The notes beneath the pieces were generated by a model, which saw only the letters and a list, made by a program, of their open reading frames with translations, had not been told where the DNA came from and ran no database searches. Both the position numbers and the translations under genes were made by a program. From assembly GCA_044892525.1 (NCBI GenBank), contig CM097888.1, forward strand, positions 58,342,001 through 58,406,000: a DNA stretch of 64,000 nt, given 5' to 3'. Below are positions 1 through 45,011 of the stretch, piece after piece; within the stretch, counting starts at the first letter, position 1, and the number at the start of each line of letters is the position of its first letter. The DNA comes from Schmidtea polychroa. Taxonomy: Eukaryota.

Positions 1-1842
1 AAGCAATAAAATTTTGTTGCATCATGTAATTACACATTTTTGAAGTGATGCATAGAAGTTTTCTTCCACATAATCTAGTAATTGATTTCCTATATTTCGG
101 AAATTTTTTGATTGCTGCTACCTCTTCTTTCTGTGGAAATTTCTCCAAATTTTTTATATTTGTAAATTATATTTCGGATTGATTCTTTGCGAATTCCTAA
201 TAATCGCCCGAAATTATAAATATCTTCCCCGTTTCCATTACATTGACTAATCTGATTTTGTCAAGCTATGAAATTCTATCGAAATATTAGTTTTTAAATT
301 TAGGCTAATAAAATTTTACGATTTTCTAGTTTTTTCCCCAACATCAACATCGGATGGCAAAGTTGAAATTTCAAGGTAATGTGAAATACTTAAAAACTAT
401 TAAATTTTTTAAAAAATTAAGATAAATCTTACGAATTATTGTCTTCATTATTCTATACAACTCTAAGTTGAGTTTTCGGAATTTAAGTTAAAAATTTTTT
501 GTTATTTTATTCTTAAAATATTCTAAAAATGTCTGTAAATGATTTATTATAGTGCGTTTATTCATTACAACGATTATATATATCGAAATTTTGCATGCAT
601 TTTTAACTATGTGTTGTGTTTGTGTGTCATTTTATTTTTCTACTACTTTCTCATTTTCTATATTAAATGCGTTTATTCATTGCAAAGCTAAAAATCAACT
701 CACAGGTAAGTTGGTATGTTTATATAATATACACATTGACTTTTTTTTTAATATTATATATGCGTTTGTTCACTACAAACAGGTGTATATTAAATAGTAA
801 AATTACAAAAGCGATTTACACGAACTACATTAGTCAAGCCTCCACAATAACATCCAAACAGGAGCGTCAAATGGACTACTATTTAAGTATCTAAATGAAA
901 TTTTTTTTAGAAAGCTGTTCATGTAAATATCAAGTCAGGATATAAAATTATACCACTGATATATTAGTAATAAAATCAAAAATTACAGAATCAGTGTCAA
1001 CTCACCTCACAAAATCACAGAAACAAAATTAAATATACTTTGTTTTAATTTTCAGAACTTCGAATATTAGGTTTTATCGGTTTTCTAACTTTACACTTGA
1101 CTGGTCATATTCATCGATTTTTACAACTTCCATTTTCATTACACAGCTATTTTATTAACTTGAAAATATAAATAATAAAATAATACAGATAACTTTAATA
1201 TATTTATTTAAACTTTACAAACTATTACAGTTTTTGATACCAATGTTTTTAAACAACAACAAATTAACAACATAAAATTTTTTACACATTATAAACTTTA
1301 TACAATCCAACTACCTGATTACATATTACGGTGAAACCCACATATAACGAATAGGTCGGGACCGGTGAAAACTCTCCCCTTATAACGAATTTATACGGGA
1401 GAGCAAAAAAAATAAAATTAAACATTAAAGCAAATTTATTTATTAATTTCATCATTAAATACATTTTCCTACTCGAACACTTTCACGGATAAAGCAGGCG
1501 CAAGAAAATATAATTTAACCAAACCTTAACACAAATAATTGACGGATTATTGTTGAGCCTTACTCGAAAACAAACAACCTCAATTTGAAGGGGACTACAA
1601 GAATAAATTAAAACTACAAAAAATGCATTAAAAATTACACATGAAAGTCATTTGAGACTAAACTTGCAGGGATTATCAATTCTAACATACCTGCATTTTC
1701 AGAATTTGGTTTCAAACTTTATATCAGCCGTCTAATAATGAGTTAAGACAAAGATTATTTATTAACTCGTATGATTGAGCGTGATTATTAGTTTCCTGGA
1801 ACTAATCTTTTGAAACTTAACTCATTTTCTGTTATCATTCAG

Positions 1843-2858
1843 ATTACTATCCATGGATTCCAATAATTCTTGGAATTCAATGCTTTCTTTTCTATTTACC
1901 GAAACTTTTCTGGCAGGAATATTGTTCTTTCAAAGCTGGGAGTGATTTGCAAAATCTTATTGATTCTTCAATATCTGCTTCAAGAGCTTCAATTGAAGCT
2001 CGAGATCAAGCAGTTAAAATTATTTCAAATAGGATTGAAAATTTATTTCATTTTCATCGGGATTATCAAAACGGCATAATTCCGGAAATTAAACGAAGAA
2101 TTTTTAAGAGATGCCCTTTGTTAATTTGGGGGAAACGTTTTGGTAATGGTATCCTAGGTGTTTATATGTTTATCAAACTGTCGAATATTTTTATTGCGGG
2201 TTTCCAGTTATACCTTATGAAAAGAGTCTTGCAATTAGACAATGAATTTTTGTCAGTGTTCGGTCAAGTTTTTGCCCATATTTATCATGGGCACAGCTGG
2301 AATTCCACAAAATATTTCCCCCGAATAGGAAATTGCAGATTGGTAGGAATCAGATCTATTGGTATTAATGACAACTCATACGTTTCTCAGTGTGTTCTGC
2401 CAATTAATATTCTCAATGAAAAAATTTACATTTTTCTCTTTCTCTGGATGTTGTTATTGATTGCATTCTCATCATTTTATTTGTTCTACTGGCTTTACGT
2501 TATTTCTTTTCGATCTCCTAAACAAGAAATGATCACATCGTATCTAAAGGGAAAATGTAATTTTTCAAAGATTGAAAAACCAATAATTGGAAAATTTATC
2601 TCCGAGTTCATTCGGCTAGATGGGATTTTCCTGTTGAAAATGATTCGAATTAATTCTGGTGATGTTTTGACAGCTTGTGTCGTTGAAAATCTTTGGAATA
2701 CTTACAAAGTTAAATATCAATTTATTGATTTTTCAAATTCCAGAATTTCTGACGAAATGGAAAATTTTGCTATAAAATTAATTCCAGGGGATCAGAAAAT
2801 ACTTATAAATTCAAAGATTGAATCACCTTCCGCACCATTGAAAGAGATGTATTTCTAA
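1843..2858 (+). CDS. inx: Innexin (gap-junction protein), large 3' exon covering TM2-TM4 and the C-tail; 5' exon(s) not resolved
   Basis: Acceptor ttatcattcag|AT at 1841-1842 opens in frame with ORF 1947-2858. It reads YYPWIPIILGIQCFLFYLPKLFW (innexin YYQW motif), FPRIGNC and CVLPINILNEKIYIFL (second-loop Cys and TM4 signature). Confidence 0.9.
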
Positions 2859-6089: not shown

Positions 6090-6310
6090 TATTGATATCT
6101 AGGGGACGAGACTGAAGCTAACTTGACTCCTTCCCAGAAACCCAAGGTGATTTGCCAAAATGATCTCCCTCATGTGTACCCATGACGACGAGTCATGTTG
6201 GTGCTGTACACATAGGTTGGAACCTATGAGTAGGTGAGCCCCTGTGTTAGTACTACTCACATTATTCGCTGTTCGGGTTCGTGAATTCCGTTGGAAGGAC
6301 TTACATCAAT
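6090..6310 (-). mobile_element. LTR 3'-end fragment (copy D) of the RING-carrying LTR family
   Basis: Contains donor GTAAGT (6304-6299), the GGGGCTCACCTAC motif and the bulged stem-loop (6168-6216), as in copies A, B, C and E. Confidence 0.6.
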
Positions 6311-7169: not shown

Positions 7170-8456
7170 TGTTCCATTTGCTGGGGTGCTACTCGGTTGA
7201 CTCCGATAAAACCTTTCGATTCACGTCTAGAGGATGGTGGTCTCTTACATTAACATCTTTCGCATTTCTGTCAGCCGCAAGCAGTACTCCACATGATCTC
7301 TCACGACATAACACCCATGAATTGCTCCATATTGGTACTATATTATGTCGGCGAGACATCAGAAAACAGGTGAGCCCCTGCCTTAGGACTACTCTTTCCT
7401 GAAGACTCGACTTTTCCTTCTCCGACGGCTGATAGAAGGTCTTACGTCTTAACTACTCCCCATTTGATCTCAACTCGTTATCCTCCTCTGAGTTCGTTGC
7501 CCGGAATTTTCAGATTCAGAGAGTATGGTAATTAAGACAATTTCTTCACGATAGTAGAAAAGAAAACAGTGAACGAAAACGTTTATTGATCAACTATTAC
7601 ACACTTAACCGTCGACACAACAAAAGAAAACATTTGACTACACAATGTTGATCACAAAATTCATGACTATTCAGAGGTTATCCTACTCAAGAGTATCGTT
7701 TCGTTTCTCCCGGTCGGCTTCCGCAAATAAGGCCTCTAAATCGAAAAATTCGGAAGCGTTCTCTTCCCAAGTTGTTCCAGCAGCTGAGATGATCCGACAC
7801 TGCATCCCGGTGTTCGCAGTTGACACGGGAGCAACGCTACTATTCGCCTGCTCAATGGGTGCGACGCGCTTCTGTGCCTTTTCGATAGCTCGCTCCTGCT
7901 TTTTCTTACGCTCTGCTCGAGATAGCTGTCGTCGCTTGGGCTTTAATGATGGATTGGTAGTATAGGATATACTGGGTGTTGGGAAAATTTTGGGTTTCAC
8001 TCTACTGGTGCCCATGAAAACGACTTCATTGGAATTAGGCGAGAGTTCCGCCTCTACACACCCTTGACAAGACTTCTCCGAGGTTCGAGGTCTATTCGGG
8101 GTTTGGTCGTGATGGGTAGGCAACACATTATCTTCCTCGGTTATCGGTATAGTCACGATCTTTCGAGTAATCGAAGCCTGTAGGTACTCTTTGTTTAGAG
8201 CTTCCGACTGCTCCTTTATGAGAAGCCGTTGCGATCTACTTTCAGCGATTAGACTATCGCGGCATTGTTCGCTCCGGAGTAAAAAAAAATCAAATTTTAT
8301 TTTCTGAAATCGTACTGGCCACAAGGCCGAAGGGGAGAATTTCTCACCCTTATGTGTTCTGCAGCTTTTAATTGTCAATTTCTTCTAATGTTGGAGTTAG
8401 AAACTCCCACATTTGTACGTGGTTTACAAGTTTTTCCGGTAAACATCCTTAGGCAT
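7170..8456 (-). mobile_element. LTR-derived segment (copy C) with coiled-coil ORF and structured block; no PBS follows, so 3' or solo LTR
   Basis: Same order as copy A: ORF, donor GTAAGA (7445-7440), AGTAGTCCTAAGGCAGGGGCTCACCT, bulged stem-loop (7304-7350), CA terminus near 7170. Confidence 0.6.
7683..8456 (-). pseudogene. Coiled-coil/basic protein of the LTR family; open 8378-7683, ancestral N-terminus (ATG 8456) broken by in-frame stops
   Basis: LRSEQCRDSLIAESRSQRLLIKEQSEALNKEY aligns with LRLEHCRDSLLEESRCQRLTIKAQSEALHKIY of ORF 12890-13648. The upstream in-frame MPKDVYRKNL*TTYKC resembles MTTSTNTGKNLHPCFSC. Confidence 0.7.
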
Positions 8457-8464
8457 GATAGAGG

Positions 8465-8620
8465 TGTTGGCGTATGTGGGGAAGAAAGGAAATTACGATC
8501 GCTTTCGTTCCGCTCAGACCCTTCCACAGCATACCCGCAATGACTTTACTAATATTCCCTCATGTGAGCCCGTGGAGATGTTACACGTTGGTGATGCCCA
8601 CATGGGTTGGAGTCGGTTAG
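8465..8620 (-). mobile_element. LTR 3'-terminal 155 bp (copy B), near-identical to the end of copy A
   Basis: Matches 12370-12545 with about 5 substitutions plus one indel. Ends ...CCCCACATACGCCAACA with no PBS after it. Confidence 0.8.
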
Positions 8621-9532
8621 TAGGTGAGCCTAGATCTGAGCGTTCTTGGGTCGGCCGTGATTCTCCTGTGCTCTCTTTGTCTTCTCTTTGTTCCTTTTGC
8701 TTGAGCGGGTTCTGACTTGGTTTGTCCTAATCGGTTGTCGGGTTTCTTCGAATTCCTCCTGCGCAGGTTCTGAATTTCTTTAACTGGATTGCTTGTCGAT
8801 CTTATTTGAATTCCTTCTAAGCTGGTTCTGAGTTGGCTTGGTTGGATCCAACAATGAAAAAATGATATCGTGTTGCATTTGCTTACACGAATCAATCATT
8901 CCCTTTTGCAATATTCAAACACAGACACCGTTTAGGGCCTCTGTTATGCTTCTCTTCTTTTCCCCATACAATCTTCGTGGATTATAATTACCCATCAACC
9001 CATATTTTTCGTCTATTTTAAATTATCTATTTGGGGTAGTAACAATTATCTATATGGTCGTATGAATTATCTATAGTTACCATTTATAGTATAAATAGGT
9101 CGTTGTCGGTATCTGCTTATTACCCCCCTTTATTTTCTTAATCCTCTTGCGCTATTTTCGCTATTTTTCTTATTCCTGTCTGTTCTCCCCTCACTCGGTT
9201 CTACTCTGGAACCAAAAAAATTCGTTTTCCCGGTTTAAACCAAAAAAAATTCTGTAGAACTTTGTCTGCTTAACTGGGATCCCCTTTAATTATTTAATTA
9301 TTTTCTTCCTTTTGTTAATCATTTATTCTCGCTTATTCTTTATTTTACTATCTTCTTAATTCATTTTCCTTTCTTGTTCCTTTTCCCCCTTGAAATTATA
9401 TTATCCATTACTACGAGCTCGTTTATTCTTCCCTAAAATCAAATTCCCGTATCTAATTTAAATTCGCTTCCCTTAATTCCGTTTTTCAGCTAGCTTTAAT
9501 ATTCTATCTCACTGTAATTTCTAGGCCTTTAC

Positions 9533-9855
9533 GACTGGCTGGTACTTTTCAACAGCTCAATCTTCATTATCCTGACCGGCTGGACTTCTCACAACTCGGC
9601 CTTAATATCTCTGGACTGACTGGACTCTTCACAACTCAGTCTTAATTTCCCTGACCGACTGGACTCTTCAACAGCTCAGTCTTAATTTCCCCGGACTGGC
9701 TGTACTCTTCAACAGCTCAGTCTTAATTTCCCTGACCGGCTGGACTCTTCAACAGCTCGGCCTTAATATCTCCGGACTGGCTGGACTCTTCACAGCTCAG
9801 TCTTAATTTTCCCTGACCGGCTGGACTTTTCAACAGCTCGGCCTTAATATCCCCT
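9533..9855. repeat. Tandem array of eight ~40-bp units with alternating variants
   Basis: Consensus GACYGGCTGGACTCTTCAACAGCTCRGYCTTAATWTCYCY read directly. Confidence 0.9.
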
Positions 9856-11405
9856 GAACCTGCATGCTTCCGCTTCTTTTTCTCTTTTATTCCAAATTCT
9901 CATTTTCTCTGCTTTTGTTGAGGTCTCGATATTCGGGAACACTCAACTTACTGGTTCTTATATATGTATAAATATATCAAAAGACAAAGTAATTTCTAAA
10001 ACTTTTGTTATAAAGAAAAATTTACCAAATATGAATTAGTCTGCTAGATTATAAAAATCCTTTTAATATCCAACCGAATATGCTTGTATGTACTGTGTGA
10101 ATGTTGTGTTTCTCTTGCTGTGTTGCGTGTAGGCTTTTGAACGTTTTTGTTTGTCTGTTCGAGTTTTAGCACTAATAAGGATTAACCTTTTTAGTATGTT
10201 AACGCGGTTAAAATTTTGGGCGAAGAAAATGAATTTTACCTCGCTATTTATACTATTTTCGTGTCTATGAAATTAAATTGATATATTTTTATAAGTATAC
10301 TTAAGAAAATAACATATTTTATAAATATGGTTAAAGTATTAATTATTGAAAAATTAATTAAAGTGTTAATTATAAAAATTATATATGTTCTAAAATTATT
10401 ATTATTTAATTATTATTTTAAAATATCTAAAATTCTAAAATCATATGTCCACTTATGTTCTTATAAATTGTTATTATTCTTATAGCATATGTTTTGAAAT
10501 CAAGATTATAATTTCAAATACTAATACTAATTAAGATTATTTATTTTGTAATTCTAAATAATAATTAGTCCCCGTAATATATTTTATTTTAATGTACATG
10601 AACATCGAAACATGAAATAATATTCCAAAGATAAATAAGATGCACAGTAATAATAATTGTCATAAAATAATAATCCAAAAATAAATAAGATGCACAGTAA
10701 TAATAATTGTCAAAAGCATAAACTAATGTACATAGTCAATAATCAAATTGCAATGATAATCGTCACTGTTTTGACTTGTCCGGCTTTGGTTATTTGGGTT
10801 CTACGTAGATATTGACTCTGAACTTGTTGCTGCCCGTTCTATAGTAGTGGGTTAGTTCAAATTCTTCAATTCTTCTTCCTCTGTCATCCAACACTTTTAC
10901 TTTTAATTTGTCGACTTAATCTTTACCGCTTGAGAGTGTTTTCCCCTTTCCCCCCTTGCTCAAAACGCAAAACGATCGCATTGATCCATTTCTACATTGG
11001 CATGGTGATCAGTCATACCGCATAAACTTTTCAATATCCGCGATGGTACCTCGCCTCACATTTCTTACTCGGGATGATCGTACCTCCCGAAGGTGGCTCG
11101 GTTTTTCCCCCTTTAACCCTTATGTTGGGACTAGTTCCACTTTATGTAATTAATTAAAAATTTTTTTTTAGACACTTTTTCTTCATGGTGAACAAAAATT
11201 ATAATAAAATTATTAAGATCTATCATAAACGGAATTATAGCTGCACACAATGAGATAAACAAACAAAAATATTTTATTCATTATTCAGTTCACGCTACAT
11301 AACGATATACAATACTATTATTAAAATGTTACCACATCGATAAAATAAAATGTTTCAGTCTAATTGTTAAATCAACCAATTCTTTCACCGAGTGACGATC
11401 GCGCG

Positions 11406-11885
11406 CTAATTGAAATAGACAACGTGTTTTTCTTTTATCTCGCATGCACATAGAGAACAATGAGTCAAGACGGCGACGCATTCGTCGCAATGACTTAGGT
11501 GTCCGCAAGGTAAGATCAGAATTCTGCCGGGTCGGACCTTACAGATATTACAAGTTCTCAATGCTGCTGCTTTCTCTTCGATCAAGATTCGTATTCTCTT
11601 AGACAGAGTTTTCACTTGTTCGCGTACTTTTATATATTCAGTATTTAAGTCAGGATCGTCGAGACGTTGTTGAAACCATTGGTAGTGGATTGACAAGTCA
11701 GTGTCGTTATTTGTTGCTCCCAATATATCTGTTAGAAAGTTTTGTTTAGATATCAGTGGTGCATTGTGACGTTGCTGCTCTAGGAGTTCTATTTGTTTCA
11801 ATTTCTCGGTTAATGTTTCTATTGAGTCGTTTTCTATGTCGACGAACCTGCTTAGTCGCTGTAAATGCTGTCTGGCTTCTGGCAT
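11406..11885 (-). CDS. Coiled-coil plus C-terminal IAP-type C3HC4 RING protein (159 aa, probable E3 ligase), carried by an LTR element
   Basis: CNIC..ILILPCGHLSHCDEC..LTHCSLC..IKEKHVVYFN* has all 8 Zn ligands and a terminal aromatic residue as in IAP RINGs. No BIR domain. Acceptor ttattcag|atATG precedes it. Confidence 0.85.
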   Translation of the reverse strand: MPEARQHLQRLSRFVDIENDSIETLTEKLKQIELLEQQRHNAPLISKQNFLTDILGATNNDTDLSIHYQWFQQRLDDPDLNTEYIKVREQVKTLSKRIRILIEEKAAALRTCNICKVRPGRILILPCGHLSHCDECVAVLTHCSLCACEIKEKHVVYFN

Positions 11886-12344
11886 ATCTGAATAAATGTG
11901 TAGTTATTATTTATTCTTACTGATGTTAAAGATAATATTATTGCGCTTTTGTTTAATATTATTTATCTTTTATTTGTTATTGTTTCCAACTTTTGCATTT
12001 TATTCAATCTTTAAAAATCTCCCCGTCGTACTTTCGATTTTCAATCATTTAATTTTATTGTCATTACTTTCCTTCATTACCCCTTTTATTTTAATAAATT
12101 ACAAATATTTAATTCCCATTTTCTCTTCCAATCATACTCAATCATATTCATTCATACTCATTTAGATTCATTTTTGTTCATATCACACTCTATTTCGGAC
12201 TCTTAACACAAACAGTTCACGTTTTCGTTTCATTGCACCATAATATTAAATCAATTCAGTTCGGTCCCGATTCTATTTTTTATCATAATTAGTTGGATTA
12301 GCACATCATAACACAACAATAAACACTCAAATCAAATCAGATTC

Positions 12345-12362
12345 ATCCCGGCTGAGCCCCCA
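12345..12362 (-). promoter_or_regulatory. Primer-binding site complementary to tRNA-Pro 3' end
   Basis: Minus strand TGGGGGCTCAGCCGGGAT is 16/18 identical to the MLV tRNA-Pro PBS TGGGGGCTCGTCCGGGAT. It lies 7 nt after a CA terminus. Confidence 0.85.
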
Positions 12363-12369
12363 AAAATCA

Positions 12370-13650
12370 TGTTGGCGTATGTGGGGAAGAAATTATTATC
12401 ACAAGACATACCATCGCTTTCGTTCCGCTCAAACCCTTCCCCAGCATACCCGTAACGACTTTACTAATATTCCCTCATGTGAGCCCGTGGAGATGTTACA
12501 CGTTGGTGATGCCCACATGCGTTGGAGTCGGTTAGTAGGTGAGCCCCTGCCTTAGGACTACTATTAACCCACTCTCGGTTCGGGTTCCAAGGTGCCTTAG
12601 AAGGTCTTACCCACACTCTCACACATAACTCGGTCCGACCCAGGTCCAAGGGGACGACCTTTATATATGGGCATACATTCAAGATCACCATTTCATTCAA
12701 ACTGATCACAGAGTTATTCATATCAATAATACCCTCAATGAAATCGAAAATTATATTAAAATAAAGATAGAAGAGATATTTACAACAATTAACACATCAA
12801 CAAAACTTAACAAGCTAAACATGCAGCACCATCAAATTATCGTAAAGTTTATTCACGACTCAGAAGGATCGAGACAGATAGTGAGTCAATCAATTGAACA
12901 CCTCCCCTTCTGCAATCATCTCGTCAATGTCGACGGGTAGCCGGCGATCTTCCAAGAATTTAATGCCATCTGAGGGATCTACCCGGAAGATTTCTTTCGC
13001 GGGGATCGAGTGAGTGGAGATCTCCTTAATCCTTGACTGCGCCACGAACAACGACGCTTCGAGCGTGGCCATAGCATCTCTACGCTTTTGGTTTTTCTCC
13101 GAGCGTGTCGGCCGTTTCCTCTTACGAGGTTGCAAGGTGGTTTTCGCTGGAGAGGTTACGGCAGGTGATATGAGAATTGGGGCCAAGATGGGATCTGATG
13201 GGCCTCCTGCCATTGGTCTATAGCCCGATAGCACAGGGGCGGGAATGGGTGGCAGATGTGGGCCATGCCCCTTACAACTGGATGTTGAAGGCTCTGCTGA
13301 TTGATGGTGGACTGGGAACACATTGGTTCCATCTTGGATTGGGTATTCGCGAACTCGCTTCGCTATTTCAGCATCGGAATAGATTTTGTGAAGGGCTTCG
13401 GATTGGGCCTTTATAGTCAACCGCTGACATCGGCTCTCCTCTAGGAGACTGTCACGGCAGTGCTCCAGACGTAAGATCTTGCTTTTCTCCTCTTTCATTT
13501 GTGGCGGGGAGAACCACGTTCCTTCATAGATGTCGATCCTCTTTTTCAATTCCCCAATGTATAGGTGGAGTTGCGCGATGTCCGCATTTTTATCGGCACA
13601 GGAAAAGCAAGGGTGAAGATTTTTCCCAGTGTTGGTTGATGTGGTCATCT
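12370..13650 (-). mobile_element. 5' LTR (copy A; 5' boundary unresolved) containing a coiled-coil ORF, TATA box, splice donor and structured block
   Basis: Ends in CA immediately before the PBS. Contains TATATAAAG (12667-12659), donor G|GTAAGA (12610) and stem-loop 12476-12519. Confidence 0.7.
12890..13648 (-). CDS. Uncharacterised 252-aa coiled-coil/Pro-rich/basic protein in LTR copy A
   Basis: Uninterrupted ORF with acceptor tctttag|ATG; homologous to the ORFs at 7683-8456 and 19807-20265. Confidence 0.7.
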   Translation of the reverse strand: MTTSTNTGKNLHPCFSCADKNADIAQLHLYIGELKKRIDIYEGTWFSPPQMKEEKSKILRLEHCRDSLLEESRCQRLTIKAQSEALHKIYSDAEIAKRVREYPIQDGTNVFPVHHQSAEPSTSSCKGHGPHLPPIPAPVLSGYRPMAGGPSDPILAPILISPAVTSPAKTTLQPRKRKRPTRSEKNQKRRDAMATLEASLFVAQSRIKEISTHSIPAKEIFRVDPSDGIKFLEDRRLPVDIDEMIAEGEVFN

Positions 13651-14289
13651 AAAGATTAAGATATTTATATTTGCACTTTAAACATTATTGGATCGTCAGT
13701 TACACTTCCACGACGCGAGTTTTATTTACATCCACTCCACATTAAAATAATAAAAATTTCAGCTCTCCCATGCATACCAGTGGCCATCCTGAGACCCATT
13801 CAAGCCTCAATCATTCAAGTCAATTTGTTCAAACGGCTGCAGTTCTATGAAAAGAAAACGGAACCTCGTACATCATTCTATTCGCACATAACAGTCTTAT
13901 GTCTATCTTCGGGGTTGGAAGTTTGCCCGTAAATATATCCTCATCGACTTGTATTATTATTTTATTATCGTTGATGTTATTTATTATTTTCCCCCCATTG
14001 TGTCTTGTATAACGTCCTCCACTTTGTCAAATTTTCAGGGGTTTAGGTTAGCCAAATAATCCAATGCGATAAATGTTCCCTGGCGCTATTCTAAATCAAG
14101 TTAGTAGAACATGAAATTCATAAGTTATTAATTTTCAATGATTATTTAAAATATCAGCTTGCCTATTTTAAACTTTCGCCTTAACTGTCGTCATAGCGAC
14201 GCAGCAAATTGAGCGATAGTGTGTAAACATTTTCTCCTGTCTGTATTACGTATGTTATTTAAAACGTCGTGACACATACCTATGTTAGA

Positions 14290-14690
14290 ATTCATTATGT
14301 GATACCAACTACACTCTTAAAATTTCAACCCCCTTTTCAATGAATGTATTCGATTCACCCCTACACACAACTTCAGTAATTCTCTTACTATGGTTATGTA
14401 ATGGTGATACTATCTTGCTCCTTAGTCTAAATGTGTCGTGGTGTGCTGGGGGTAGCTTATGCAACCTCTCGATGAATTTTCAAGGCGCCCCAAACTCTTG
14501 ATTAGCATTTTTTAAGAAATTTTTCAGTTCTTATGACGTAAGTTGTTTGTGATTCCTAACTGACAAGATTAAATCTATTAATTTCAGATCTGGAAAAGAT
14601 TCGTGTTGACACTCCGATAGCTATAGCCCACTCAGACACTCGGCTACTATCTCTCGCGCTCCATGGACTGGAGTTTTTATCGGATTATTA
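14290..14690 (-). pseudogene. Decayed coding remnant, possibly retroelement gag
   Basis: About 130 codons in one frame with a few stops (..FPDLKLIDLILSVRNHKQLTS*ELKNFLKNANQEFGAP*..); no diagnostic motif. Confidence 0.3.
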
Positions 14691-17600
14691 TTGCCACTTG
14701 TTAGGTTGTAGGTTATTTGTTAGTTTCGTAGTTTTGTTATTTAATAAGAAAATTGATGTACCCGAAAGAGTCTCCGTTAAAACTTCTGGCGGTCTACATC
14801 CTCTGGAGTTCATTTTAATGGCTACCGTAAGAATCTCGTTGGAAGTTTTGCTTTTTTCTCAGAATAGATGCTAGACTTTTCCTATGTGGTTTATCAGTAA
14901 AATCGAAGTAAATCCTAAATCTCTAAAATTGCTGCTACTGAGATGTGATTTTGTGAGAATGTCCCTTAGTTCGGATTACAACTGGAGTGTCCACCTCCTA
15001 CTACTAGCCTCACGGTGATAAATTTCTTGTGTTTGATGCACGAAGAGGTTTGATGATAGCAATTTTCGACCTCACTCGGTGACAGAATTCCCGCAACGTA
15101 TGTCTATGTCTCTCGCTAGATGTCCTCACCCCTCCTGACCAACCCAAGAACGGCATACATTTCTGCCATAGCTCTTAGACCGCCAGGAAGGACGAATCGA
15201 TCTCTTCAACCACAACTAATATTCGTCAAATAGAAGAAAACTAATTATCACAATGAAAAATAAACAAATAAGTGAAAATCAAATCCGGTTAAAGACATTA
15301 TTACTGAATGAAAAATTATTTACCTGGCGACCATTTCATTTGGGTTTCAGGTATGATGTTTTGCCGGCCCTGTGATTGTGCCATCGATCATGATATTAAA
15401 TGAAACTCGCATAAGCTCTATTTACGTTTTCTGTGAATATAATTCTACGACATCGTTGGGATGCATATTCTGGAAATTACTTGAACTATTTGTTGGGCTA
15501 GAACTGATTTCTAGACCCAAACTTCTAATTATGACTGAAAAGTGTAGGTACACAACATGCAAAAAGTATAGCTAAATATTAAAAACTACACCAAATAAAC
15601 AATAGTAATTAAAGGAAAAAACAACAAATAATAAACACAGAAATTAAATAAAATTATACAAAAGCAAGAAGTTATGCAAAATAAAATTCAAAAATAACCA
15701 AATAAACACAGAGTTACAAAAAACAGACTCGAATAACTTAAAGACGGTAAAAGCAGTAAAAAATTCCAGAAAAACCCAGAACATTCCATAAAATGGCGAT
15801 GACCATCACAAAAGCCATCTAGAACAACAAAAGTTAGAAAAAATAAATAAATTAGTATTAAAAATAAAAAATCTTAAAAAGAAATTCATAAAACATCAGT
15901 TAAAATAAAAATAAAATTAAAATTAACATGGAATGTTCTGGAACCGTTCCAAATCCATCATGGACTTCGAATTAACAGAAAGTAATTAAAAAATAAAAAT
16001 TTAAAAATAAAAACAAAAATTATGGCACAAAAATTGCCATTAAAAATAGCAAAATCGCAAAATAGAAAATTCTGGAATAAAAAGAGTTCGAGTTTGTTTT
16101 AATGCATCAATACATACACGTGTACAAAATAGGTATATATACCGACACGTTTCGGTCATAATTAATCACCATTTTATGCCAATTATTGAGAAAAATCTTG
16201 CCGACACAAATAGTAAGGATTGTTGATTTATTTTTTTTTAATTTTTATTGCATTGATGAATTAATTTTTCATTTTTTATTGTATTGAGGATCTATTTTTC
16301 ATTTTTATTGTAGGAATGGTTTATTTAGGAAAAATTAAAGTAATTGCATATTTTGATGTTTCTTACTTTTGATTTTCTCCAGTGATGTACGAATGTTCAA
16401 CGGCGTATGGTATTCCTGCGTCGTTGTTCAGTCCTGCATCCAATTTATTTAAGATTTATAGTACATGCATTATTAATATTATATCGATCTAATTTTATAT
16501 CGTCCTCTTTTTGTTCGGGTCCTTCGGAGGTCGAACTACTTCATGGTCATTCCATGGAGTTAGGTCGAGGAAACCCTCCGTCTGACTCTTTGTATTTATT
16601 AAAGGTCAGCCGTAAATGGTTGACTTAACATATAACATTAAGGTTTGTCGAAGTGGTCACAGTGGGGCCATGAAAGCAATATTCTTCCCGACCTTTTGCT
16701 TAATACACAATTAATTTCAACATTTAAAATCAGGAACAACATCTCTACACTAAGGTATTAATCTGAGTAGAACTCATACCTAAACTTACACAATTCTGCA
16801 CTCACACTCATGTAGCTGGTTGACCCATAAAAGTAATTTCAAGTATAATTTAACAGGCTAATTCAAATATAAATGTAGATATGATAAACTTAACTCTTCA
16901 AAAATTAAGTACAAAATTCAGGGTTTCTACATCGAAAATAGTTAGATAAACGATAAATGTGTAATCATCCCAACTAAAAAACCTCAGCTATGAACAATGT
17001 GAATAAATCTTAACTATGAAATAAACCAAATTTAGGTGTATATGGATCAGAAAATATGAATGTAGTTATGTATAGATGGTATATGTAGTTAACTTTGAAA
17101 AGGTAACCCAGTAATAATGGTAGATAGGCTTTGAAGATGTATCTTATAAAATTTCGGTATGAATTTTGGGACCTAAAAATCTAAATCATAATTAATTATG
17201 AAAGAATCTTTTTTAATCTTAAAACCATAAATTATAAAGATCATAAACGTTTTACATAAATTGTATCGATCTTAAAGTTAGAAATTCTCAAAACATAAAT
17301 TATCAAACTTATAAATGTTATATATAAAGTATATCGATAGTTATAGTTAAATTTTACTTTATAGAATATAAATTAGAAATTGTGGTATATGAATCTTGAT
17401 CACAAATATAACTCATAATTATTAACTATATATGTACATTAATTCTGAAAATTATAAACTATAATTAGTTATATATAAAAGGTTTATGGATGTAAACTAT
17501 AAGTAATTATAAGTTCTAACTATAACGTAGGGAATATAAATAATGACAGGTAAATCGGCATTATAAATATAATCTATAAAGAGGTATCAATACCAGTTAC

Positions 17601-17739
17601 AAATGATTATAATTAATATTTAACTATAAATATATAAAGTATAAATAGCTAGAATAGCTTGCCTTTAAGTACACGACGTTAAAAATTAGAAATAAAAAAT
17701 ATATTTTGTTGAAATTATAAATTATAAATTGAAAATAAT

Positions 17740-17855
17740 TATATTTCTTATTACTATTATAATCGTTATCATTATTATTATTATTATCATCATTATTATT
17801 AATATTATTAGTAGTATGGTTGTCATTATTATTATTATTATTATCATTATTATCA
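17740..17855. repeat. Imperfect (ATT/ATC)n microsatellite
   Basis: Visible trinucleotide run. Confidence 0.85.
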
Positions 17856-19176
17856 AATAAAATTATAAAACAAATTATTGATTTTGGGATTCCCCTATCT
17901 CTAAATTTAGTTTCAGTGGCCCTATCTTCCAATAAAAGTACGGAAAATCACTAAATTCTATTTTTAGTAACACCCCCCCCCGTAAAACGACCTCTATATT
18001 ACTAATGTGGGAATATATATGTATATATCGATAATATAAGTGTGTGTGCGTGTGTGTGTGTGAAGGTACAAGTATACATGCGTGATTCTGGATATATCCC
18101 CATAAATCTACAAAATAGCTGTCAGGATCTCAATGCGGTATCATGACCACAACCCTTTAAGGTAATAGTATGAAGAGAAATAATTTACTGAAACAATTTA
18201 TTAAAGTTATTAAATTTATTTCAAAACCAAATCAAAAGGAGTCTAAATTTATTAATCACTAAAATTCTGACAAAATTATCAAATCAAAGGACGAAGAACT
18301 CAATTGTAAACTACATTTATTAATCCAATCACCCCATATATTTGCATCATGGTTTCTCCGAATCATATTCATGCCAAAGTCCTGTGGGCACAGGTGATGA
18401 AATGTATCCCCTGGGGTGGGAAAGCCTCTGGATGATTCCTTCAGTTTTTTTTTGGTTCAACGACTGGCATATTGCTTTGATGTAATAATGTTGGATAGCC
18501 GACTATACTTCTTGTGTCTCTTCTACGAAATCATTGTCAGGTAATTCCGCCAGGACGATTAGTGGGTGGAACCAACCTTGGGACGACCAAGCCTTCATAC
18601 CTCATTGAATTGTAATAAACTTGATTGCTAAGCAAATCTTTGAATTTTCTCATTGGTGCTGTCAAACAATCCTTGCTCAGACGAGATGTCATGGTAGGTT
18701 GTTGGTCAATGGGGATTGTTGTGGGAGTGCGGCCGACTACTGATATGACTGAAATGTTAATAACAAGTTTATGATATCAATATTTAATATTTTCAATTGT
18801 TTACCTTATCATAGCAAAATTAACCAAAAGTACAAATTGATTCGAAATTCATTATTTATCATTAATTATAATTACATCAACAAAACAACGAAAAATTTAG
18901 ATACTGTTGAATGACTATAACAAAATAAAAAGTACTAAAAATCAAGATTCCATGGTTTTATTTAAATTATTAGTTACCAATTTTTTCTATTAGATAAAAA
19001 ATTTTTTTCTTCTTAATTTAATTGATTAAAAATTATCGCTAAGTTAAATTCAATCTTCGTGTTAAAAAAGCACTTAACTTACTTACAGTAGCTTATTATT
19101 TAGTTGAGATATTTTATCATAACTTCAATTTGTAAGTCATTGGTTAGGAACAGGTTTTAATATTTGTACTACAGAT

Positions 19177-19591
19177 ATGTCCCAATCAGGTGAGTTCAGT
19201 AATGAGGAAAACCACCGACAAATGATCACCCGGCTCCGTACGCGGTATATTTGGTACCGCATCCATGACTGGAATCGTGGATTGGACCTTGACAACTTTG
19301 GTCCGGTTATTAGAAGTGGTCCGGAACCGGATGCCGGAGAACAACGTACTCCGAGAGGCCAGAGATCAAGCGGCCGTTGACGTGGAAATCGCTCAGAGCC
19401 GGCTGAAGAGACTGGAACTGCAACTAAGAGCCAAGCGAGAGGGGGTATCCCTAGAGGAGCTCGAAGATGCCGAGATAACTCCGCGGAAGAGAGAGGAGGC
19501 CCCGCAAACAACCATTGTGATCGTGGACAATTCAGTTAACTTGGACAACTCCTGTTTTTATGAATTAACTATTAGCAGTTGTTGTGTTTGA
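19177..19591 (+). pseudogene. Probable frameshifted coiled-coil ORF upstream in LTR copy E
   Basis: Acceptor tactacag|atATG at 19173-19174. Overlapping frames 19177-19380 and 19265-19591 (EARDQAAVDVEIAQSRLKRLELQLRAKREG) sit in a GC-richer island. Confidence 0.45.
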
Positions 19592-19806
19592 TTCAAATTT
19601 TTTGTGTATATTAGTAAATGTCGAGTGTTTACTCTCAAATAAAGTGTTTTCCTTTTATTTTGTGCATTACTTGATAAATGGAGAAGTATAAAGATACTTC
19701 AGTAGAAATGCTAACATCAACTCATTAATTTTACTATTCATTGGTTTTAACTTTTTGTTTCGTGTAATGGAAACTAATGCTTTTTTCCTTTTTAGTGTAT
19801 AAATTG

Positions 19807-20265
19807 ATGGAAAACCTACGCAAGGATCGTGAGCAGGCCCAGCAGCAAACCGACGAACTCCGAATCCGGGTGGACAAGTTGAAAGGAAAATGTCGGGAGT
19901 TCGAGGGGACCTGGTTTAGTCCCGAAGTAATGAAGAAGAAAACAACCCAGATCCTCCAGCTGCAGGCCCAGGCCGCACGAGACCAGATGGAGATCCGCGC
20001 CCTCAAATTGCAGGTGCGGGCGCTGGAAACCGAGCGAAATGAGCAGTTGGTGCAGGAGGCCGTGGCAAGACAAATACGGCCACTGGCCGTTGAACTCGCA
20101 ACCATATATCCCCCAGCTGCTGAAAGTAAGCCTAAGCGAATGCGGCTTGGACGGAACATTCAGGAGAAACTGAAGAAGGCCAGGTTGGCCGAGTACGAAC
20201 GCCAAACAATTTCAGCGCAAGTGTCTACGACGGGACCGGTTTGCCCCACCAACAAGCCGATCTGA
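19807..20265 (+). CDS. Coiled-coil/basic protein of the LTR family (copy E)
   Basis: EFEGTWFSPEVMKKKTTQIL matches IYEGTWFSPPQMKEEKSKIL of 12890-13648. Acceptor ctttttag at 19794-19795, ATG at 19807. Confidence 0.7.
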   Translation: MENLRKDREQAQQQTDELRIRVDKLKGKCREFEGTWFSPEVMKKKTTQILQLQAQAARDQMEIRALKLQVRALETERNEQLVQEAVARQIRPLAVELATIYPPAAESKPKRMRLGRNIQEKLKKARLAEYERQTISAQVSTTGPVCPTNKPI

Positions 20266-20459
20266 ACTGTTGCGAAATGTTGATCTGTATATATTGGTAG
20301 TATGATTTGTATAATTGTTGTAGCATGAAAATAATAAATATTTTGTAGTATTAAAATAATATCCTAAATATTTTGTGATTGACTGTGAAGTGAGAGTTTG
20401 TGCGAGAGTTTGTGCGAGAGTTTGGGAGAACAATTTTGATAAGGGACCTGAGAAATCGG

Positions 20460-20672
20460 ACACACACCTTCTAACGGCAGTCCGTGAACCCATAGAGTAC
20501 TCGACAATTATAGTGCCTTGATGTGCTCACTTTTTGCGAGTACTCACCCCTTGGTACAGTACCAACGTTGATTACTCAACGGGTACCAAGCGGAAAAATA
20601 ATGTTGTATCCTGGGTTACGCTGGTAACAGCACTAACTAATAAACCTTTAACCATCAGTAACCCACCATACA
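20460..20672 (+). mobile_element. 3' end of a 5' LTR (copy E) with structured block
   Basis: CCTTCTAACGG..GAACCC, GCTCAC, bulged stem-loop 20550-20590, terminus ...CCATACA 4 nt before the PBS. Confidence 0.7.
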
Positions 20673-20676
20673 AATT

Positions 20677-20699
20677 TGGGGGCTCAGCCGGGATTTGAA
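20677..20699 (+). promoter_or_regulatory. tRNA-Pro primer-binding site (23-nt complementarity)
   Basis: TGGGGGCTCAGCCGGGATTTGAA is the reverse complement of TTCAAATCCCGGCTGAGCCCCCA, i.e. T-loop through CCA of a Pro-type tRNA. Confidence 0.9.
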
Positions 20700-21392
20700 A
20701 ATTTAATTGGTGAAAGAACCCGAGAATAGATATAATGGAGAGAGTAAAAGCTGATATAAAGTGATATGCATTCAAGAACGAGCAAATTGTTTTCACAAAC
20801 ACTTAAACTTAGTACATGGATATGTGAATATGATAAAATGTATGTGAAATGTTTAAATGAGTGACGGAAGTTTTGAAGTGTGTCAACATATGAATGTATT
20901 GAAAGTGAGTATGAGAATATTGTACGAATAGCGTAGTAATAGAATGAAATGATGATAAACGAAAATTAAAACGAAAACAAAATATAATAAAAATTGTAAA
21001 TATTAACGATTAATAAAATGTAAATATAAAGAAATAATAAAAATTTAAAAATAGGGGAAAAGGGGGCATAGCACGCTAATAAAAATAAACCAAATGAACA
21101 AAGTAATTAAACTTAATCAGAAAACGTGTAAAATAGGGCGATAACGAATGTGATATAGGTTATATATAATAAGACGATTATAATAAAATCACAAGAACAT
21201 GAAAGAAATTTGCGCGGGATAGAACATTAAACCAGGGGAGACGGGGTTGTTAAGAGTGATAAGTAGAATGTAAAGGTTTATTGAAGCACTAATAAAATAA
21301 GGTATTCAGGATATTAGAGGGAAAATGATAAAGGGGGAAAATGACGCGGAATATTAATAAAAAGGGAACTTTAATTAATAAATCTTACTTAG

Positions 21393-21847
21393 ATGGAATC
21401 AACCGGCTACATTACAAAGAGACTCGAAAAATTCTAAGATTTAACACACAATTCGTTACAACGGCTAAATCGCAAAGCGGACCAGTTGGTGAAAATCCAA
21501 GACGAGATGAGCTTGAATCCAAGACCGCAAGCTGAGGAAATATGTGTAATGATGAGAATAGTAACACCTAATGCAGAATTGACCATTAAAAGAGTCTACC
21601 AAATTCAAAATTTACGATTAGATAATGCCAAATTCAACATCAAATGGCAGGAGATAATGATGAAAATGGAAACGATCGAAGAAGAAATTAAAGGAGTAAT
21701 CGAACATCAAGTTAAAGATTTTAGAAAATGCTTCATATGCAGAACCAATGAAATTTATGTTATTGCGAGAATTGCGCAGAGAAAATTAAACGATGCAACG
21801 TATGCGATACGAACGTTAGAGAGAAAATTGTAATATACCTCCCGTAA
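21393..21847 (+). pseudogene. Coiled-coil plus IAP-type RING pseudogene, full-length homologue of 11406-11885
   Basis: Acceptor cttacttag|ATG; premature TAA at 21435. ..YQIQNLRLDNAKFN..FRKCFIC is followed by a frameshifting deletion of the LPCGH segment, then YCENCAEKIKRCNVCDTNVREKIVIYLP*. Confidence 0.8.
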
Positions 21848-22260
21848 GGAAATGTTGTCAAATAAATTTATTGTGAATGAAGTGATAAAATTATTAAATT
21901 ATATTAAAAATCCATTATAGCAACCGAAAGGTATAAAACATACGATGAACATAGACATATTAAGGACACAAAATACGTTAAATAAATAGAGAAGCATCAC
22001 AGCAATTAGAACTAAAATCAAAATTGAATGCAGGACTGATCATAGTTGTATGAATGAGCTGATCGATAAGATCAGTACGATTTTTATTTCCAATTTTCTT
22101 TACTTCCTGTTTTATTATTTTGGCATAGAGTGATACGATAATAAGGGGATGACAAGTGAATCGTCCTTACGACACTTGCCCGGATGGGGAAATCCTGATC
22201 AGCCTGACGAGAGAATGTAGTAGGATCCATCGCAAATGGTGGGGAGTTTCTGTCGAGTGA

Positions 22261-22280
22261 CTGATACCACTTGTGGGGAA
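22261..22280 (-). mobile_element. Possible LTR terminus (TCCCCACA) plus short PBS-like TGGTATCAG of a different element
   Basis: Minus strand ...TTCCCCACA AG TGGTATCAG; only 9 nt and the cognate tRNA is not established. Confidence 0.35.
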
Positions 22281-23346
22281 TGAACCAAAGCGATTATTAT
22301 ATTTTTTTGTCTGGGAGATTGGGACTAACTAAAAGGGTGAATAAAAATAGAAAAATAAAATAAAAATTGAAAAACGCGCGCTAAATGTTAAAAATTTAAT
22401 CCGAGAGCAGCTGCGGATTTGAAGAAACCGTTTTTGGACTTCAAATCAGATGAGGAGTACTCATTGATATGAATTTTTCCCTAGCAAGTTATGAGGCACC
22501 CGAGTAAAGCGGCTAACCACCGGACTGTAGTGTCCAACAGATTATCAGCCAAAGGACTGATGATGCTGGATCACCCAATACAAATGAATTGGGCGCACTT
22601 ATTTTTGAGTTGCTAGCGGGACTTGATACAAAAACCCGGAAGGGTAGCGAGCGAGAGAGACCCAGTTACCTACACCGAGTATTAAGGAGCCCAGTGAAAC
22701 GGTTGTGAGATGCGAGTCAACCGGTAAAAGGACTCGTATTCAATAGGCAACCAAGATTGGACCAGTTGTGAGGCGGAGGACCGAAAGTCAACTGCATATC
22801 CAATTTCCTTTTATCTTCACTAGTCGGGTGATCTGGTTCATCACTTTTGAGAATCAAGATCGAGGCGATTAGGTATTTCCGTGTTTTTTAAATCCTGATA
22901 GATAGGATTCAACGTTCAGCTCTATAGCATAAAGAGAAAGCTTTGTGGTTATACCAGATGAAATCAAAACCAATGTTTAATGCTTGAGCTATAAGCTGAT
23001 TCATTCAGAGTTTAAACAGAAGCATCTTTAGTGTATGAAGGGTTGAGAATTTCTCCCCTTATGCCTTAACCGTCAATATTATATAATAATAACACTTTGA
23101 TTTTTTTTATCACCTGGATGCATTCATATCGTTTCTATCATTCCCTCGTCACGTATTATCTACTAAAATCGTGCAGTTCATTCTTCTAGGCTCTCTATTC
23201 TCAGTCATGCCCATCCTTGGAATTACTAATGTCTTCTCAGGATTCTTCCGAACTACAATCTCTACAATTTGACCACTCATACCCTTCAGCCTATTCCCTT
23301 TACTTGCGGATTCTACCAACTCATATTCCTGTTCCAACCTTGATCC

Positions 23347-43772: not shown

Positions 43773-45011
43773 GGTAAAAGCCCGATATAGCGTCGGTAAT
43801 TATTTACATCAAAATATACCACAAAAAAGTGACAGTACACCTAAACAAGCTTTATTCACATCAAAATACACTCAAACAGCGCAATTGTATTTCAAGTAAA
43901 CAACATCACGAAAAGTAATTCACGGATAGTTATCCATAAGCGTAATTAAGAAGTTTGGAAACAAGTCTGTGCGTCGAAATTGGTTACGATACGCAAATTC
44001 TTGCAGATATGACGGAAACAACGCGCGACTTGTTCCAAATTGTCTTTTTAACTTCCTCTTCGCCCTCATCCACATGTTCTCGATGTTCTGAGTATGCACT
44101 TCGGAGTCATTAGGATCGACGAAGTTACGTTGGTGCACAACAACGGAATGCTCATATATTCCATGTCTGATTTGATCTATATTTGCATATGCAGCCCATC
44201 CATCAGACATTATATGTGTCCCTGGCAAAATGTGAGCTTCTATACAGGCTTGCAACGTCCCTGGCCGCCTGTCTTGCACTTCCAACAGGAAGCACCGGCC
44301 ACTTTCGCGTTCAATTCCTCTGAAAACCCAGTGGCCATCACGCCGCTGGCCACGGTGATATTTCCTGTGAAAATATTTTGTTTCATCTATTTCCACAATT
44401 ATAGATTGTCCATTGACGTCTATTCCACCAATTTCGGGCGCACTGCGTTCCAGCCATGTTGCACACTCTTCGCGCATGTAGTTGCACCAATCAATTACTA
44501 GGTTTTTGGCAACATCAGCCTCGTGCTGCATCTGCATCTGCGGCATATCATACGACCAGCAATAAACGAGGACAACAATTTGTTGTAATGATAATTGACT
44601 GCGTGCAAAGAAGGATTTGTTTCGCACCGATACACGTAACCACAACGGTCGCATGCCCATCTCCTACCGTCAATTCCCTGCTGGTACCGATTCAATGTGT
44701 ACAGTTGATTGTAAATTCCGCATGGCACAGAGTTGCGAACCAAGCTTCGGCGGGCACACCACTGTAATTCCGAATCAGGTTGTTGTAAGTGTGGTGAAAG
44801 CGTCGACAATCGCCACACCTCATTTAACATATCGTTTTTACTCATTTCATTACGAGGCACTATTATTGTGGATGCTCGTGGTCTTCCGGCCATTTTGCAT
44901 TTAAAATTTAATTTAATAAAAATTAAATCCATATGAAATCCATATGAAGTAGCTATCTTTTGTGGTATATTTTGATGTAAATAATTACCGACGCTATATC
45001 GGGCTTTTTTT
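43773..45011 (-). mobile_element. Merlin (IS1595-like) DNA transposon
   Basis: About 50-bp inverted repeats AAAAGCCCGATATAGCGTCGGTAATTATTTACATCAAAATATACCACAAAA. The left end starts GGT; the right terminal ACC is missing and no TSD was found. Confidence 0.9.
43920..44893 (-). pseudogene. Merlin transposase with one frameshift near 44640
   Basis: N-part MAGRPRAS..DGRRWACDRCG joins C-part SVRNKSFF..VEIDET..IMSDGW..HTQNIENMW (DDE). Confidence 0.9.

Follow-up and report, generated by a model that had tools for sequence, protein, structure and literature searches.

Does a small RING protein of the kind found in inhibitor-of-apoptosis (IAP) ubiquitin ligases take the place of gag in a family of retroelements with long terminal repeats (LTRs), or does it belong to something larger? 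The question is raised by a 64,000-nt stretch of the Schmidtea polychroa genome (contig CM097888.1, positions 58,342,001 to 58,406,000, or G000:C4:58342001-58406000 within the 781-Mb genome; hereafter the window), in which element 1 on the minus strand and element 2 on the plus strand each carry an open reading frame (ORF) for a coiled coil and a RING downstream of a primer-binding site for tRNA-Pro (PBS-Pro). A preliminary description of this DNA had seen in them either a long-lived non-autonomous family with an IAP-type RING E3 ligase where gag should be, or the 5' modules of a giant element, and had named the giant planarian Burro elements as an identity to be excluded. According to the analysis reported here, both window elements are truncated 5' remnants of giant Gypsy elements from two families, almost certainly of Burro type, in which the RING ORF, judging from its sequence, lies between the primer site and gag as an accessory gene under selection.

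Window elements and their full-length relatives

Much of the layout originally described for the two elements was borne out. They are inverted relative to each other and have little DNA likeness, the sole match found by blastn being a 20-nt primer site, and three translated blocks can be aligned between them, namely the ORF within the LTR, the coil and the RING end; the two RING proteins are colinear at ~25% identity. Both LTRs end in CA (CCAACA at 12370 in element 1, CCACCA at 20668 in element 2), 7 and 8 nt respectively from the PBS. The primer sites themselves, confirmed at the positions given in Table 1, are exact complements of the genome's own tRNA-Pro(TGG) at its 3' end, including the CCA. 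As an exact match, the 18-mer with this CCA occurs 1,058 times genome-wide, and its reversed control not once; it was substituted for a 15-mer whose count of 2,679 was dropped as including tRNA-Pro gene arrays. The tRNA-Pro(TGG) genes lie in a 475-bp tandem array at G000:C1:130.90-130.95 Mb (L101-L106), and the T-arm/acceptor pattern of this tRNA has 2,164 matches genome-wide. An acceptor-like YAG at most 2 nt before the RING ATG is present in both elements, and the leaders that separate it from the PBS are A-rich as claimed (44-46% A), with the measured lengths of Table 1 against the 470-700 nt given before. Other parts of the description needed revision. The upstream coiled-coil ORF exists but is part of the LTR, recurring in both LTRs of full copies; the coiled-coil and RING ORF is intact in element 1 but a pseudogene in element 2, with a stop and a frameshifting deletion; and the block regarded as structured folds no better than shuffled sequences (z -0.34 and -0.76), the window having no Rfam match.

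Relatives of the RING ORF are abundant in the genome, at least 150 being scored in each family (from 3,424 and 790 candidates for families 1 and 2), and a PBS lies at a fixed distance upstream of the RING in 28 of the 30 top loci of family 1 and in all 30 of family 2, window copies included. Nine relatives, taken from plus-strand hits in the hit lists and two of them selected for hits 26-30 kb apart, were read over 40-70 kb. In eight (4/4 of family 1, 4/5 of family 2), two LTRs of 4-5 kb flank the RING ORF and a polyprotein frame, in the order LTR, PBS-Pro, RING ORF, leader, polyprotein, 3' accessory ORFs and LTR. The four family 1 elements measure ~30.5 kb, with 4.2-kb LTRs that are 99.8-100% alike, and one of them is a tandem pair sharing an LTR; four family 2 elements measure 34-36 kb, with LTRs of 4.3-5.2 kb, the fifth copy being truncated. 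LTR termini of the form TGTTGGG...CA and 4-bp target duplications were seen in all six copies inspected. The polyprotein frame runs unbroken over 4,736 aa in two of the four family 1 copies and over 4,791 aa in one of the five of family 2, the others being in pieces.

The second alternative of the preliminary description, 5' modules of a giant element, proved to be the right one, since full copies carry gag, env, protease (PR), reverse transcriptase (RT), RNase H and integrase (IN) after the RING, beginning 2.4-2.9 kb past its start. A Pfam scan of one copy per family recovered in both polyproteins CCHC knuckles, a Monjiviricetes-type fusion protein, protease, RT, RNase H, integrase and ankyrin, together with Retrotrans_gag in family 1 and a MATH domain within the polyprotein of family 2. 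The env-like fusion domain (PF24664, E 3e-72 and 2e-69) lies upstream of the protease in both. A TRAF ORF with a MATH domain follows at the 3' side in both families, to which family 2 adds a 392-aa IAP with BIR (PF00653, E 6e-18) and RING. No BIR was found by Pfam in the one family 1 copy scanned, and BCL2-like, SUMO-like and dUTPase-like motifs gave no Pfam match at E 0.05 in one copy per family. The family 2 IAP (L091:9017 to L092:192) is complete, with a C-terminal CPMCR RING, and adjoins a complete TRAF ORF; it accounts for the greater part of the genomic PF13920 matches listed, of which 150 were scored.

Burro identity, which had been flagged for exclusion, is instead supported by architecture and Pfam domains, because element size, LTRs and polyprotein domains match the account in PMC6431247, the comparison being with that published description. 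Burro1/GYPSM1 and Burro-2 to -4 of Schmidtea mediterranea are giant LTR elements which, like those studied here, exceed 30 kb, occur in very many copies and encode, in a single polyprotein of 4,873 aa in that account and of 4,736 and 4,791 aa in ours, Gag, CCHC knuckles, an env-like fusion domain placed ahead of PR, RT, RNase H, IN and ankyrin; their polyprotein MATH and a BIR are matched here by family 2 (PMC6431247). Unlike in our families, no separate coiled-coil and IAP-type RING ORF between PBS and gag is listed for the Burro elements of that account, the sole RING mentioned in the parts bearing on Burro being an AIR1 motif; likewise, the BIR is not presented there as part of a full BIR-RING IAP, no full 3' TRAF ORF is given, and BCL2-like, SUMO-like and dUTPase motifs, some of them found by HHpred, are reported for elements whose counterparts here lack such Pfam matches (PMC6431247). 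A Burro-like element of Dugesia tigrina resembles family 1 in having MATH in an accessory ORF and not in the polyprotein, but that ORF lies upstream, whereas the TRAF/MATH ORF of family 1 is downstream and its upstream ORF is the RING (PMC6431247).

Burro as an element type, the apoptosis and ubiquitin domains that it carries and the suggestion that it meddles with host apoptosis and ubiquitination are already published (PMC6431247). Neither the Burro section of that paper nor the titles listed in a literature search mention a BIR-less RING as an ORF of its own between PBS and gag; Grohme 2018, its extended data, Repbase or any supplement to PMC6431247 may already annotate it. What is new here would therefore be members of the families and one accessory gene, possibly undescribed. 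The gain lies in a small, selected and readily expressed accessory protein with which the suggested action of Burro on host apoptosis and ubiquitin (PMC6431247) can be tested, a protein of 159 aa being much simpler to assay than a polyprotein of 4,800 aa.

Selection on the RING gene and possible roles of its product

Pairwise Nei-Gojobori estimates of dN/dS were 0.17, 0.08 and 0.15 in three lineages (6, 3 and 11 distinct sequences) of a set sampled by primer site, defined in the next section. Among all intact copies, family 1a pairs with dS above 0.6 gave 0.08, a value biased downwards by top-hit choice and drawn from pairs that are not independent. Judging from these substitution patterns, the RING ORF is under purifying selection in many copies, and it very probably encodes a functional protein. 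Within family 1a, dN was 0.070 in the coil and 0.087 in the RING. We collected 77 intact copies, representing 59 distinct sequences, some loci having been fetched twice. All eight zinc ligands are kept in 77/77 and a tyrosine stands among the last four residues in 76/77.

The RING of element 1 matches PF13920 at 31.5 bits, and its best PDB sequence matches are the RINGs of cIAP1, cIAP2, XIAP and BIRC7 (E 9e-7 to 6e-5). Of five AlphaFold models, the one with the highest pLDDT (87, against 53-66 for the rest) consists of six N-terminal helices and a RING, for which Foldseek retrieved the RINGs of IDOL and the IAPs (cIAP2 RING, rmsd 0.8 A over 57 columns) and no match for the N-terminal helices; a homodimer prediction scored 0.30 against a mark of 0.32. 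With these proteins the element RING shares the C3HC4 spacing, the PCGH motif and the terminal aromatic strand. Unlike them, it has no BIR, UBA or CARD, no loop-2 proline and no linchpin arginine, and it is preceded by a 108-residue helical N-terminus without a match. The absence of a BIR from the 159/160-aa ORF was established with Pfam; the BIR is the defining feature of IAP proteins (PMC4966970).

The element RING departs from the IAP-type ligases in loop 2, which across the intact copies reads C-S/T/N/D/H-x-C-A/V/T/K/D. Neither the proline nor the arginine occurs in any of the 77, the linchpin being Asp in 40, Ala, Val or Thr in 32 and Lys in 5. By comparison, database RING matches have Pro in 88/147 and Arg in 81/147, and CPxCR is found in the IAP of family 2 itself and in 6/6 other genomic RING exons. 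The earlier assignment to the IAP-type RING E3 ligases consequently holds in part: Pfam, PDB and fold agree on an IAP-type RING, but the missing Pro and Arg make a strong ligase unlikely. In RNF38, no linchpin performs better than arginine, and substrate ubiquitylation is lowest with Ala, Tyr or Glu (PMC12326332).

The origin of the protein was sought in databases and by phylogeny. A word-indexed protein search with the element 1 RING gave 77 candidates, none at E 0.001, whereas 5,796 matches passed this threshold when 1.84 billion representatives were searched with a HMMER profile. Among the 150 matches listed, P0001 is a full-length near-copy of family 2, and most others cover the RING part alone. 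P0003 joins a coil and partial RING (34% to family 2, 27% to family 1) to a Burro-like Gag, 51% identical to that of family 2, so that the order RING before gag is also found in a more distant element. The N-terminal 108 residues found no match outside Burro-like sequences in the profile search (matches listed), Foldseek or the ESM Atlas, the last queried with residues 1-110 and returning no usable match. A rough RING tree of 78 rows and 56 columns, whose bootstrap had not settled and from which database matches P0061-P0150, P0001, P0002 and matches without the full RING pattern were left out, places the family 2 IAP RING together with three RING exons of the genome (94/95, under the star mark); the 5' RINGs form two separate clades.

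IAP RINGs dimerise through the terminal strand. In the element protein all eight zinc ligands are kept, as is an aromatic C-terminal strand like that of dimerising RINGs, but not the residues that prime ubiquitin on its conjugating enzyme (E2). It may pair with the RING of a host IAP or with the IAP of family 2 itself, and such pairing could damp or redirect IAP ubiquitylation in the manner of MDMX on MDM2, keeping the host cell permissive. Because the linchpin tunes ubiquitin transfer, with Arg as the best residue (PMC12326332), and because IAP RINGs dimerise, we favour the reading that the RING itself has weak activity or none and serves as a partner by which an IAP-type ligase is damped or redirected, to which we give a probability of roughly 0.45. 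Homodimerisation has been reported for cIAP1 (PMC6349121), and MDM2 and MDM4 are cited as a pair of active and inactive RINGs (PMC12326332). MDMX (MDM4), in the MDM2/MDMX heterodimer, is alike in the proposed mode only, as the RING partner of an active RING (PMC12326332). It differs in that its sequence match to the element RING is weak (E 0.6-0.9) and in that the partnership here is putative. The MDMX zinc-ligand pattern also differs from that of the element RING. A second parallel is baculovirus Op-IAP3, reported to bind and stabilise host IAP (Byers et al., via PMC4966970), also a viral IAP-type protein acting on a host IAP, but from a BIR-bearing group. Should the element protein prove to be a pseudo-ligase that pairs with IAPs, a mobile element would possess a counterpart of MDMX, and this in an animal that depends on controlled cell death to regenerate.

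Several observations weigh against this interpretation. A RING can be active with Tyr as its linchpin, as that of XIAP is, and the Arg is absent from many RING E3s, so that the missing Arg is no proof of inactivity (PMC12326332). The hydrophobic positions facing the E2 are largely kept, with Ile in loop 1 in 69/77 copies and Ile or Leu in the helix in 77/77. The 77 intact copies are related and partly repeated, and their counts are not independent. Family 1 showed no IAP of its own in the copy scanned, so the partner would there have to be a host protein; a host IAP was not confirmed, no BIR being found within 10 kb beside four IAP-like RING exons. The 56 columns of the tree join the 5' RINGs neither to each other nor to the element's IAP. 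Finally, the RING gene is not required in cis, since a third PBS-Pro family lacks it.

The retained ligands and E2-facing positions also suit an active E3 with non-canonical priming of E2~ubiquitin, whose N-terminal helices would bring a host restriction factor, for instance a protein of a silencing pathway, for degradation. This alternative is a doubtful but substantial one. The coil is constrained like the RING, as expected of a substrate-binding arm, five copies have Lys at the linchpin, and RINGs without Arg can be active (PMC12326332); moreover, SMEDWI-2 represses BURRO1 in S. mediterranea (PMC8532177), so counter-defence would pay. It has to contend with the loss of Pro and Arg from every intact copy of three lineages, with an acidic Asp in 40, and with the fact that no substrate-binding domain was recognised by Pfam, Foldseek or the ESM Atlas.

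A role unrelated to ubiquitin appears improbable. The protein would then be an adaptor, a coiled coil stabilised by zinc, that serves in particle assembly, in RNA handling or in transcription of the element. In favour of this are the drift of loop 2 away from the ligase pattern, the N-terminus matched in Burro-like sequences only, and the position of the gene beside gag. Nevertheless, the TRAF, MATH and IAP modules of the element make a ubiquitin and apoptosis context the simplest one, and the C-terminal aromatic strand is retained.

Distribution of the RING gene over primer sites

The association of RING and primer site was also examined independently of the RING hit lists, by following contig C1 and taking, in order of position, the first 40 sites that match the primer 15-mer exactly, each with 9.7 kb downstream. 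A RING homologue was present at 27 of these sites, with the full C3HC4 frame in 23, and polyprotein matches followed within 9.7 kb at all 27. The remaining 13 (L109, L116, L118, L123, L128, L133, L136, L137, L140, L141 and L143-L145) belong to a third PBS-Pro family with a different LTR end and no RING match. Gag lies 7-10 kb downstream in 7/13, behind a leader of 7-9 kb, and the one copy read whole has 1.66-kb LTRs, a gag-like frame and no long pol frame. Hence the proposition that the RING consistently follows PBS-Pro stands for the top loci of both RING families but not for PBS-Pro in general: the RING accompanies gag-pol in two families, and PBS-Pro does not imply RING.

The idea of a non-autonomous LTR family in which the RING replaces gag-pol, which began from the absence of gag-pol in both window copies, is very unlikely and, for both RING families, refuted. 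The RING precedes gag instead of standing in its place, polyprotein sequence accompanies it at every RING-bearing site of the sample, and 8/9 copies read at length are full-length. No gag or pol follows either PBS in the window, as originally stated, but only because both local copies are truncated, ending at clear breakpoints at about 8635 and 22908. Deleted derivatives do occur: four of the 27 RING-bearing sites are internally deleted, the one scanned being gag-only, a further one is without gag to protease, and another ends after ~500 residues. The four internally deleted ones retain gag, and the RING is broken in the one whose RING region was read. The four (L122, L131, L142, L146) represent an internally deleted relative of family 2, with ~70% identity, in which a frame of 1,100-1,570 aa fuses gag to the polyprotein C-terminus.

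RING genes are common and host genes (innexin, Sir2) lie in the same region, but a host gene situated by chance near LTR remnants is practically dismissed by at least 150 dispersed copies per family, which exclude grouping as a single-copy host gene, and by the fixed PBS distance in the top loci.

Expression signals, local copies and neighbouring features

How the RING would be expressed is suggested by its surroundings. A YAG lies within 2 nt of the RING ATG in 76/77 intact copies, and in two full copies a YAG stands no more than 6 nt from the start of 11 of 13 accessory ORFs; among the internal Met codons of the polyproteins, 60 of 327 have one so near. Since the leaders contain 17-22 upstream ATGs, the RING would not easily be translated from genomic RNA, and it is probably made from a spliced mRNA of its own through the conserved acceptor at the ATG, by cis-splicing from a donor in the LTR or by spliced-leader trans-splicing, both of which fit equally; the latter has been reported in S. 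mediterranea (PMC12582326). Downstream of the RING stop, family 2 has an AATAAA at a fixed distance (13 nt, 40/41) and family 1 at a variable one, weak evidence in A-rich DNA.

The 3' cassettes were examined in two full copies, at G000:C4:59885001-59925000 (L042-L045) and G000:C4:44125001-44165000 (L089-L092). They look operon-like, with YAG-ATG starts, gaps of 59-225 nt and a TGTAWAWA motif after the stops. The gaps are close to the median of 99 bp in S. mansoni operons (PMC12582326). The motif follows 11 of 13 stops of the polyprotein and 3' accessory ORFs by 16-27 nt (shuffles: mean 0.34, maximum 4), having been picked from the same gaps in which it was counted. It resembles the Pumilio element, UGUAHAUA. 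Planarian poly(A) sites have been reported without UGUA (PMC5068929). A wider picture, in which Burro would be a retrovirus-like genome with an operon-like, self-contained kit for cell-death signalling (a TRAF, a complete IAP and, upstream, a pseudo-ligase RING that has no BIR and regulates IAP turnover), each ORF as an mRNA made by spliced-leader trans-splicing and controlled by a shared Pumilio-like 3' UTR motif, is speculative and, taken whole, has little probability.

Table 1. Features of the window, numbered from its first nucleotide
Feature	Position	Strand	Remarks
Element 1 RING ORF	11406..11885 (coding 11885-11409)	-	159 aa; helical/coiled-coil N-terminus and C3HC4 IAP-type RING; intact
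Element 1 A-rich leader	11886..12344	-	459 nt; 17 upstream ATGs; acceptor-like TTTATTCAG 2 bases before ATG
Element 1 PBS	12345..12362	-	18/18 complement of host tRNA-Pro(TGG)+CCA
Element 1 5' LTR, partial	12370..15360	-	continuous match 12370-13682, patch 15049-15360
Element 1 LTR ORF	12890..13648	-	252 aa; EGTWFSP motif common with element 2 LTR ORF; no Pfam family
Element 1 leader, RING to polyprotein	8640..11405	-	ends at about the start of the polyprotein open frame
Element 1 3' LTR end, likely	8465..8630	-	last ~165 nt; 96% identity over 137 nt to 12409-12545
Element 2 5' LTR	15491..20668	+	TGTTGGGCTAG...CCACCA; unmatched stretches in the middle
Element 2 LTR open frame	19768..20265	+	165 aa; coiled coil
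Element 2 PBS	20677..20699	+	23-nt complement of host tRNA-Pro(TGG)+CCA
Element 2 A-rich leader	20695..21392	+	698 nt; 22 upstream ATGs; ends CTTACTTAG directly before ATG
Element 2 RING ORF, broken	21393..21847	+	stop 21435-21437; frameshifting deletion near 21752
Element 2 leader towards polyprotein, start	21848..22908	+	match to full copies stops at 22908
Innexin exon	1821-2858		
IS1595/Merlin-like element	43776-45008		51-nt inverted repeats
piggyBac-like element	45240-47520		33-nt inverted repeats
hAT-like transposase, broken	59461-60486		

In element 1, two parts of the leader that runs from RING to polyprotein have matches in full copies, 10895-11405 and, with 40-bp tandem repeats, 8753-9916; the stretch 9917-10894 had no match among the fetched loci. 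The match runs to about 8750, and the junction of leader and LTR lies near 8635, which points to a deletion within the element that removed roughly 22 kb, beginning at about the polyprotein frame's start and reaching as far as the outer end of the 3' LTR. The outer end of the 5' LTR was not found, the LTR being traceable to 15360. As element 2 starts in the opposite direction at 15491, it was likely inserted into this LTR. The deletion near 21752 in the RING ORF of element 2 shifts the frame and removes the PCGH ligands; intact 160-aa frames of this type are found in many other copies. Target duplications could not be paired for either window element, each of them being without one end.

The sense ORFs of the LTRs at 12890-13648 (-), 19768-20265 (+) and 7683-8384 (-) have in common an EGTWFSP-type motif and a basic C-terminal part, and those of both families match no Pfam family. 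Two older Burro-like LTR-end fragments are recognisable, at 6166-6304 and at 7365-7460 with 7683-8384. The end of element 1 at 8465 adjoins one of them, so that the region appears as a nest of insertions.

On the other side, a tandem array starts where the match of element 2 breaks off (22908). It occupies 22907-43700 and comprises just over five near-identical units of 4,054 bp, each with an uninterrupted 275-aa frame of the Sir2 family (PF02146). Its five units are the only close copies in the genome, and the array may reflect either the recent amplification of a gene or an artefact of assembly.

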